64,000 nucleotides of DNA from Escherichia phage P1, in sequence record AF234173.1, one strand, 5' to 3'. The notes beneath the pieces are model-generated. The model worked only from the letters and a program-made list of their open reading frames with translations. It was not told the origin of the DNA and made no database searches. A program made the position numbers and the translations under genes. Shown piece after piece: positions 51,575 through 51,739 of this stretch (position 1 is the stretch's first letter; every line of letters begins with the position of its first letter).

Positions 51575-51591
51575 ATTGCTCTAATTATAAC
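51575..51591 (+). promoter_or_regulatory. Operator-like site ATTGCTCTAATTATAAC directly after repL
   Basis: First 11 nt identical to the C1 operator core, 3' half divergent. Confidence 0.35.
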
Positions 51592-51739
51592 CATGCATAC
51601 TTTCAACACCTCTAGTTTGCCATGAGGCAAACTCATAGGTGTCCTGGTAAGAGGACACTGTTGCCAAAACTGGACGCCCCATTATTGCAATTAATAAACA
51701 ACTAACGGACAATTCTACCTAACAATAAGTGGAGTTAAC

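Follow-up and report, generated by a model that had tools for sequence, protein, structure and literature searches.

The C1 operators of phages P1 and P7 are 17-bp asymmetric sites with the consensus ATTGCTCTAATAAATTT. Auxiliary or orphan repressor sites, such as lac O2/O3, act by roadblock or looping, and C1-mediated looping has been reported in the immC region of P1. Proteins with the DUF3800 domain have an RNase H-like fold and are linked to retrons and Cas12a2/a3 loci. Eleven unrelated structured RNA motifs (DUF3800-I to -XI) were described beside DUF3800 genes; UAA is common in these motifs, and no hypothesis on their function was offered (Weinberg et al. 2017, PMC5737381). In accounts of P1-like phage-plasmids, rlfA-rlfB-pmgF is listed as one of eight variable regions (PMC9603915; PMC6906374).

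The spacer between repL and rlfA of P1 was analysed in a 64,000-nucleotide stretch of DNA, referred to below as the window. The 401 bases around the spacer were 100% identical to Escherichia phage P1 mod749::IS5 c1.100 (AF234172/NC_005856) at the same coordinates, and window coordinates are therefore P1 coordinates. The locus is an ordinary junction between a conserved backbone and a swappable cargo cassette. The explanation we lean towards is that two unrelated things, a known operator core and a weakly constrained cargo leader, abut there at a mosaic junction. The features discussed below are the following.

50726–51571, + strand: repL open reading frame (ORF list; annotated as repL in AF234172)
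51569–51571, + strand: repL stop codon TAA, the end of the open reading frame 50726–51571
51575–51591, + strand: C1 operator Orlf (formerly Op55), ATTGCTCTAATTATAAC, a GenBank protein_bind feature; Op(rap) of P7 lies at the same place
51585/51586: left edge of the variable cargo region, where homology to most P1-like elements ends, right after the operator core
51606–51642, + strand: extended hairpin 1, in the MFE and centroid structures
51614–51633, + strand: inner stem-loop of hairpin 1, AGUUUGCC-AUGA-GGCAAACU, enclosed by the outer stem ACACCU/AGGUGU
51639–51658, + strand: hairpin 2 as an earlier note on this DNA read it from the sequence, GUGUCCU-GGUAAG-AGGACAC
51645–51666, + strand: alternative second hairpin UGGUAA..UUGCCA, in the MFE fold
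51682–51760, + strand: invariant block, with no variable column in 7 aligned sequences
51685–51713, + strand: predicted sigma-70 promoter PrlfA (AF234172 annotation), with –35 TTGCAA at 51685–51690 and –10 GACAAT at 51708–51713
51740–52444 and 52444–52908, + strand: rlfA and rlfB (ORF list and AF234172 annotation)
52915–52946: first terminator-like site after repL, a 14-bp stem with a T-run, called by the scan on the – strand only

The C1 operator core after repL

The earlier note had reported an exact 11-nt C1 operator core directly after the repL stop codon, followed by a divergent 3' half, and both observations were reproduced. The sequence ATTGCTCTAAT at 51575–51585 matched the conserved core (operator positions 1–11) at 11 of 11 bases, close behind the stop codon at 51569–51571. 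The bases that follow, TATAAC, matched the consensus 3' half AAATTT (positions 12–17) at one of six; T at operator position 15 is present in 17 of the 18 reference operators. The exact 11-mer was present three times in the window (expected number 0.05), the remaining copies being known operators, Oref (Op2a) at 1962 and a site at 21015. The operator itself was already known as well, annotated as Orlf in AF234172, where it is worded as 'C1-controlled' and carries the older name Op55, and as Op(rap) in the P7 record.

To rank the site, a weight matrix (PWM) was built from 18 other annotated P1 operators and applied to both strands of the whole 94.8-kb genome. Op55 scored 15.16 bits and ranked 21st of all 17-mers, level with the annotated Op99c (15.17 bits), while the best unannotated background site below it reached 12.35 bits. 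Its core had the maximal score of 19.48 bits, equal to that of the best operators, and its 3' half (–4.3 bits) was the lowest among the 19 annotated operators scored. Given a maximal core, the worst 3' half and a total above the next site, Op55 appears to be a plausible but weak operator that stands above background, and binding of C1 to it is likely but would be weak. It has the same orientation as Op53, at a distance of 1765 bp.

The same scan returned two operator-like 17-mers on the + strand that scored above Op55 and have no protein_bind feature in AF234172: ATTGCCCTAATGTATTT at 17166–17182 (16.7 bits), which lies near LPpro and within darB, at its 5' end, and ATTGCTATAATTATTTG at 1485–1501 (18.3 bits), between cre and c8.

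The operator core lies at the edge of a cargo region

A search with 51540–51760 retrieved 480 P1-like plasmids, in which the match either ran across the spacer (101 plasmids) or was confined to 51540–51585 (about 380). Homology likewise ended at the last core base (51585) in RCS47 and other phages. The sequence following the core fell into two classes only among 85 IMG/VR matches that contained the core, with TATAAC.. in 14 and CTGGAG/CTGGGG.. in 71. The TATAACC... class is the rlfAB type, and the majority class begins with CTGGAGTCACCTGGCGTTTTCAG, a 23-nt linker common to the majority type, after which a second-level junction leads to differing cargos that include ParA-family/DUF3892, hokD and IS605-family genes and others. 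Among 76 IMG/VR contigs anchored on the repL end alone, the core was intact in 75, and three of the five bases directly before it varied between lineages. Natural variants of the core were ATTGTTCTAAT in pIPCEC31_2-type elements and ATTGCTCGAAT in pZ1322PEC0253-2.

Because the core is kept across cargo types and is followed by only two classes of sequence, it belongs to the conserved repL backbone, retained whatever cargo comes next. Beyond its last base the cargo types are no longer homologous to each other, which is why the 3' half looks divergent; the divergent half is the first six bases of the cargo. The rlfAB cargo is variable region 5 of P1-like elements, and Op55 marks the left edge of this cargo hotspot to the base. 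In the available text of the literature on P1-like variable regions, a left edge coinciding with the end of an operator core is not mentioned. Membership of the backbone also means that Op55 should not be read as a switch for rlfAB specifically.

Several mobile-element explanations for the edge were considered and rejected. RCS47 carries ISEc46, an element of the IS605 family, directly behind ...TTTTCAG. Its insertion point is not where homology breaks off at 51585, for the IS lies 23 nt further on, after CTGGAGTCACCTGGCGTTTTCAG; its position was settled by comparison with IS-less plasmids. Subterminal hairpins of the IS200/IS605 kind did not account for the spacer, as no transposase is present here in P1 and ISEc46 had no evident likeness to the spacer by eye. 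Repeats bounding the cassette were also sought between the left junction and the right cargo end, and only short matches at chance level were obtained. One of them is an operator-like inverted 19-mer at 53112–53130 with T at position 9. It belongs to a weak operator-like sequence, ATTGCACTTATTATTGC (53109–53130, – strand, inside pmgF; 8.35 bits), which makes up, with the Op55 region across the cargo, an inverted repeat of 19 nt (84%). This resemblance is probably due to chance, since T occupies position 9, where 18 of 18 reference operators have A.

Promoters and terminators around the spacer

A repressor-controlled internal promoter that could express rlfAB separately had been suggested for this junction. 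That a repressor site and an rlfAB promoter both exist here agrees with the reference record, in which Orlf and the predicted PrlfA are annotated, but the promoter is not at the operator. The operator/promoter reading is thus largely a restatement of existing annotation. The promoter scan gave no promoter-like site at 51560–51620 and none over Op55. In other promoter-associated operators annotated in the stretches examined, the promoter lies far closer than the 93 bp that separate Op55 from the –35 of the predicted PrlfA. Op88 and Op94 share bases with a –35 and Op68 directly adjoins one, whereas Op55 overlaps no promoter. At 93 bp, direct repression of PrlfA by C1 bound to Op55 is unlikely.

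A variant of this idea is that Op55 overlaps a C1-repressed internal promoter of its own and that the hairpins form a stabilising 5' leader of an rlfAB mRNA starting near 51600. The hexamer TTGCTC of the operator is the annotated –35 in the ban and pmgR promoters (Op72a and Op86a; GenBank), and Op55 has the same hexamer in the same orientation. Moreover, 5'-terminal stem-loops can stabilise mRNA, as the ompA 5' stem-loop does. However, when TTGCTC of Op55 is taken as a –35, the –10 reads TACTTT or ACTTTC in P1 and GCGTTT at the corresponding position of the majority cargo type, and no acceptable –10 was found at 16–18 bp from this hexamer. With the promoter scan silent, the P1 annotators placing the promoter 93 bp further on and the supposed leader being the least conserved part of the spacer, a promoter at Op55 is quite unlikely.

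On the + strand, no terminator-like site was found by the scan between 50797 and 52915, so that read-through from repL into rlfAB is expected, and transcripts from P53 probably run into rlfAB during lytic growth. The palindrome at 52915–52946, whose + strand tail reads GATCGCTCTTTCT, may also end such kilA-repL-rlfAB read-through transcripts. In an RNA-seq preprint, repL and rlfA/rlfB were grouped in a replication module, and all three were under-induced at 20 min in a Δhfq host, which does not contradict co-transcription of repL and rlfAB. CRISPRi knock-down of kilA, repL, rlfA or rlfB left plaque formation unaffected (PMC10695390), and nothing at the locus is therefore essential for lytic growth. 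A search of the literature did not turn up a map of P1 transcription starts.

Folding of the tandem hairpins in P1

The two hairpins were present with the sequences and positions given in the earlier note: AGTTTGCC-ATGA-GGCAAACT at 51614–51633 and GTGTCCT-GGTAAG-AGGACAC at 51639–51658, which places them 82–126 nt upstream of the rlfA start codon. They are unusual by several measures. The 64 nt of 51605–51668 folded as RNA to –28.9 kcal/mol (z –4.65), with 0 of 200 shuffles as good, and as DNA to –16.2 kcal/mol (z –4.5). In a sliding scan of 64-nt segments (step 8, both strands of the window), neighbouring segments were among the 40 lowest of 15,986, the best at –27.0 kcal/mol. Three pairs of perfect hairpins at most 12 nt apart occurred in the 64 kb, compared with 0.03 ± 0.18 in block shuffles. 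The tandem hairpins are statistically unusual in P1, and it is therefore not obvious that the stretch should be taken as mere spacer by default.

The two remaining tandem pairs of perfect hairpins in the window are at 46711–46751 and 49742–49793, both likely at functional sites. The latter consists of the ant-distal terminator hairpin and a Dam-site-rich palindrome just upstream of P53, so that in P1 tandem hairpins stand at either end of the kilA-repL unit.

The description of the region as stable tandem hairpins held with one correction: folding is stronger than chance, but the MFE fold differs from the two hairpins proposed (–28.9 against –22.2 kcal/mol for the two-hairpin structure). In the MFE fold an outer stem, ACACCU (51606–51611) with AGGUGU (51637–51642), extends hairpin 1, and the second hairpin is UGGUAA (51645–51650) with UUGCCA (51661–51666), which competes with the proposed hairpin 2. 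Hairpin 2 (51639–51658) and the outer stem of hairpin 1 are mutually exclusive, and the fold of the full spacer offered the central GGUGUCC a third partner at 51672–51678. With several competing partners for the central segment, the predicted pairing is degenerate and does not amount to one well-defined structure.

Neither hairpin resembles a terminator, in line with the absence of a U-tract pointed out before. The tails are CATAGG and TGTTGCC with no T-run at either, whereas an intrinsic terminator has a G+C-rich stem followed by a U-tract, and the terminator scan was silent there. In an Rfam scan of 51300–52000 (E up to 10) a spurious lncRNA match was all that appeared, and ARAGORN reported no tRNA or tmRNA. 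No second copy of either palindrome was found in the window. A REP/BIME-like repeat was rejected on the grounds of this single copy and of an occurrence in E. coli genomes only alongside rlfA. Leader peptides were also dismissed: the spacer contains a 10-codon ORF (51593–51625) and a 27-codon ORF (51622–51705) without a Shine-Dalgarno sequence, and both are broken in relatives, with the ATG lost in pCFSAN004178P_01 and an early stop in P7.

The hairpins vary and the promoter block does not

A blastn search with 51586–52000 against plasmids and complete E. coli genomes was used to follow the hairpin segment. All DNA matches listed, in plasmids and in E. coli genomes alike, start at 51586 and run into rlfA; there were 101 plasmid records, 100 of which cover at least 80% of the query. 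The segment was present in 121 of 5426 E. coli genomes, at 124 places, and 122 of 123 records cover at least 80% of the query. No partial match or foreign context appeared among the matches listed, and an exact 24-mer of the spacer had no match in 185,579 species genomes. Wherever the hairpin segment was found, it adjoined rlfA in a P1-like element.

The spacer was recovered in ten haplotypes. The most variable stretch of the locus was 51550–51699, with 27 variable columns in 150, compared with about 0–7 variable columns per 50 in the coding sequence of repL and rlfAB and zero at 51700–51799. Positions 51682–51745 were identical in 10 of 10 haplotypes, and 51682–51760 was invariant in the seven-sequence alignment. 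This 79-bp block borders immediately on the 100 bp that vary most in the locus, and it holds the predicted PrlfA, the Shine-Dalgarno sequence GTGGAG and the rlfA start. By this measure the constrained part of the spacer is the invariant block 51682–51760 and not the hairpins, and 51682–51739 is the best candidate for the cassette's own expression signals. Within the predicted –35 region the block contains a perfect palindrome, ATTGCAAT, and a possible hairpin sequestering the Shine-Dalgarno sequence appeared at about 51712–51735 in the fold of the full spacer.

Among the haplotypes, six of the 14 stem positions of hairpin 2 vary, as do two of the 16 of hairpin 1, where both changes break pairs. 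The loop GGUAAG of hairpin 2 is invariant but for one haplotype. The strongly negative z was kept in four of five haplotype groups (–2.9 to –4.7), whereas the P7-type haplotype, which comprises P7 plus several plasmid and IMG/VR loci, folded to –14.7 kcal/mol with z –1.25. JL22 is about as distant from P1 (94.5%) as the P7 type is. P7 retains intact rapA/rapB despite its decayed hairpins. Taken together, the comparative data indicate that the hairpins are not maintained and are dispensable in close relatives.

Compensatory changes at 51640 hint at selection for pairing. The pair 51608/51640 is A-U in four haplotypes, G-C in three and broken in two, and 51640/51657 shows a compensatory change from U-A to C-G in the P7 type. 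Column shuffles gave covariation as good in 294 of 500 trials for the two-hairpin structure and in 52 of 500 for the MFE structure, in a sample of nine haplotypes that are about 95% alike and provide one compensatory pair per alternative fold and about three transitions.

These changes bear on the attenuator that the earlier note had listed among its readings. In that scheme the central AGGUGUCCU would pair either upstream with ACACCU or downstream with AGGACAC, or with GGACGCC at 51672–51678, and would thereby gate read-through from repL to rlfAB. Mutually exclusive helices are indeed predicted, and 51640 changes in a compensatory manner with 51608 in three haplotypes and with 51657 in the P7 type. 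Nevertheless, no T-run follows any of the alternative folds, and none therefore forms a terminator; the covariation signal comes from about three transitions and is not above shuffles in either structure; and neither a conserved leader peptide nor an Rfam riboswitch or leader match was found. With no terminator in the scan and the small ORFs of the spacer not conserved, the attenuator is not upheld, and we regard it as most improbable.

The same variation weighs on the palindromes as DNA. They could be two perfect 20-bp sites for dimeric host or phage regulators of PrlfA, with 4- and 6-bp centres, 30–70 bp upstream of the predicted –35. For a start near 51720, their centres would lie at about –71.5 and –96.5, and spacing of that order is typical of class I activator sites. 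Yet the symmetry is broken in the P7 type (one change in hairpin 1 and four in hairpin 2) and in several other haplotypes, and the palindromes vary while the adjoining promoter block is invariant. Compared by eye, the half-sites are unlike the CRP, FNR, LexA and PurR consensus sequences, and a search of this kind for CRP, FNR, LexA, PurR and DnaA-box sites gave none that was convincing. Neither palindrome recurs in the window, and no DNA-binding domain was found in RlfA or RlfB with Pfam. Regulator binding at these palindromes is accordingly a doubtful proposition, with little chance of being correct.

The rlfAB cargo and DUF3800-associated RNAs

RlfA and RlfB are annotated in the record as 'possibly associated with lytic replication', and rlfAB has long gone by the label 'replication-linked function'. 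RlfA carries the Pfam domain DUF3800 (E 3.5e-14), and the two proteins match a PADLOC candidate defence system, RlfA as PDC-M04A (E 1e-95) and RlfB as PDC-M04B (E 1.3e-51). Homologues with 37–74% identity occur in Proteobacteria, Bacteroidota, Planctomycetota and other phyla. On these matches rlfAB resembles defence or toxin cargo and not a function in replication, and the PDC-M04 match reframes what a regulatory junction here would control.

The hairpin region could on this account be a functional structured RNA acting with RlfA, a 12th kind of DUF3800-associated RNA, in which the P1 element is the cognate partner (substrate, antitoxin-like or guide-like) of the RlfA/RlfB pair. Several points are consistent with this: rlfA is both a DUF3800 and a PDC-M04A gene, 11 DUF3800 motifs in which UAA is common have been described (PMC5737381), DUF3800 has ties to retrons and Cas12a2/a3 loci, the hairpins accompany rlfA throughout the matches listed, the z-score in P1 is strong, and the near-invariant loop GGUAAG includes UAA. 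Against it, no Rfam match was obtained with E up to 10 in P1 51300–52000, and around 34 RlfA homologues of diverse phyla, to a distance of about 1.5 kb, a search for the DUF3800 motifs found none (E up to 0.1). The 168 nt upstream of 33 homologues showed no excess of structure over coding controls (mean z –0.43 and –0.66, respectively; z fell below –2 for 4 of 33 in each set), and blastn-short of the P1 spacer against the 34 homologue loci gave only chance 11–12-mers. Because motifs, extra structure and common sequence are all lacking at the homologues, the idea is not supported. Furthermore, the P7 type keeps rapA/rapB intact yet has lost the structure, covariation is not significant, and the scans found neither a promoter nor a terminator by which a separate RNA would be bounded. 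A structured RNA of this class is unlikely. The narrower proposal that the tandem-hairpin leader is a lineage-specific structured RNA working with RlfA inside the candidate PDC-M04 pair is very unlikely; if true, it would make P1 a tractable handle on what DUF3800-associated RNAs do.

At the RlfA-homologue locus of Vibrio paucivorans, the group II intron domain RF00029 matched at 1160–1235 with 40.5 bits (gathering score 40), on the opposite strand and on the upstream side of the rlfA homologue, at a distance of about 270 bp. The match points to mobile elements in the neighbourhood of the Vibrio paucivorans copy.

A probable backbone operator beside a cargo leader

The preferred reading, a known operator core that abuts a weakly constrained cargo leader, assigns the two halves of the spacer to different owners. 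The Op55 core would be a backbone operator at which C1 acts as on an auxiliary site; with no promoter of its own and conservation together with the backbone, Op55 would be an auxiliary C1 site at most. It might serve as a roadblock by which stray transcription of the lytic replicon is kept out of the cargo in lysogens, or it might alternatively form a loop with Op53; it would not switch an rlfAB promoter.

The hairpins would form part of the opening stretch, roughly 95 nt long, of the rlfAB cargo cassette. Since they lie upstream of the predicted PrlfA, they would be present as RNA only in read-through kilA-repL transcripts, where their effect could at most be to slow 3' exonucleases or to set the two cistrons apart. 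That the hairpins are not needed follows from their decay in P7-type relatives and from the absence of the whole segment from most P1-like elements. They most likely are a weakly constrained leader, at most an RNA-stability element on read-through transcripts; of the processing site put forward earlier, a processing or stability role may survive. The energy calculation proposed as a check on the hairpins (–28.9 kcal/mol, z –4.65 for 51605–51668) does bear out strong folding in P1. The consequence for P1 regulation is small, as the reference annotation already contains both the operator and a separate promoter for rlfAB.

Comparison with known systems

Like the DUF3800-associated RNA motifs I–XI, the P1 element is non-coding, structured, next to a DUF3800 gene and endowed with UAA in a conserved loop. 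It differs from them in having no covariance-model match and no covariation support, and nothing comparable to the P1 hairpins was seen upstream of the 33 RlfA homologues. The likeness to intercistronic stem-loops, of the REP/BIME type or internal to operons, is closer in position: the P1 hairpins are likewise stable, free of a U-tract and just past a stop codon, and they are likewise non-terminators inside a probable polycistronic transcript. In contrast to REP/BIME elements, their sequence is single-copy and is not kept in P7-type relatives.

With auxiliary repressor sites such as lac O2/O3, Op55 shares the lack of a promoter and a place at the distal end of a repressed operon, kilA-repL; this likeness is one of position only, and the conservation of Op55 follows the backbone and not the genes downstream. 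The closest relatives of Op55/Orlf of P1, or Op(rap) of P7, are the 17-bp asymmetric C1 operators of the two phages, of which it is itself one, set apart from the others by the weakest 3' half of the 19 scored, a half made by the cargo junction.
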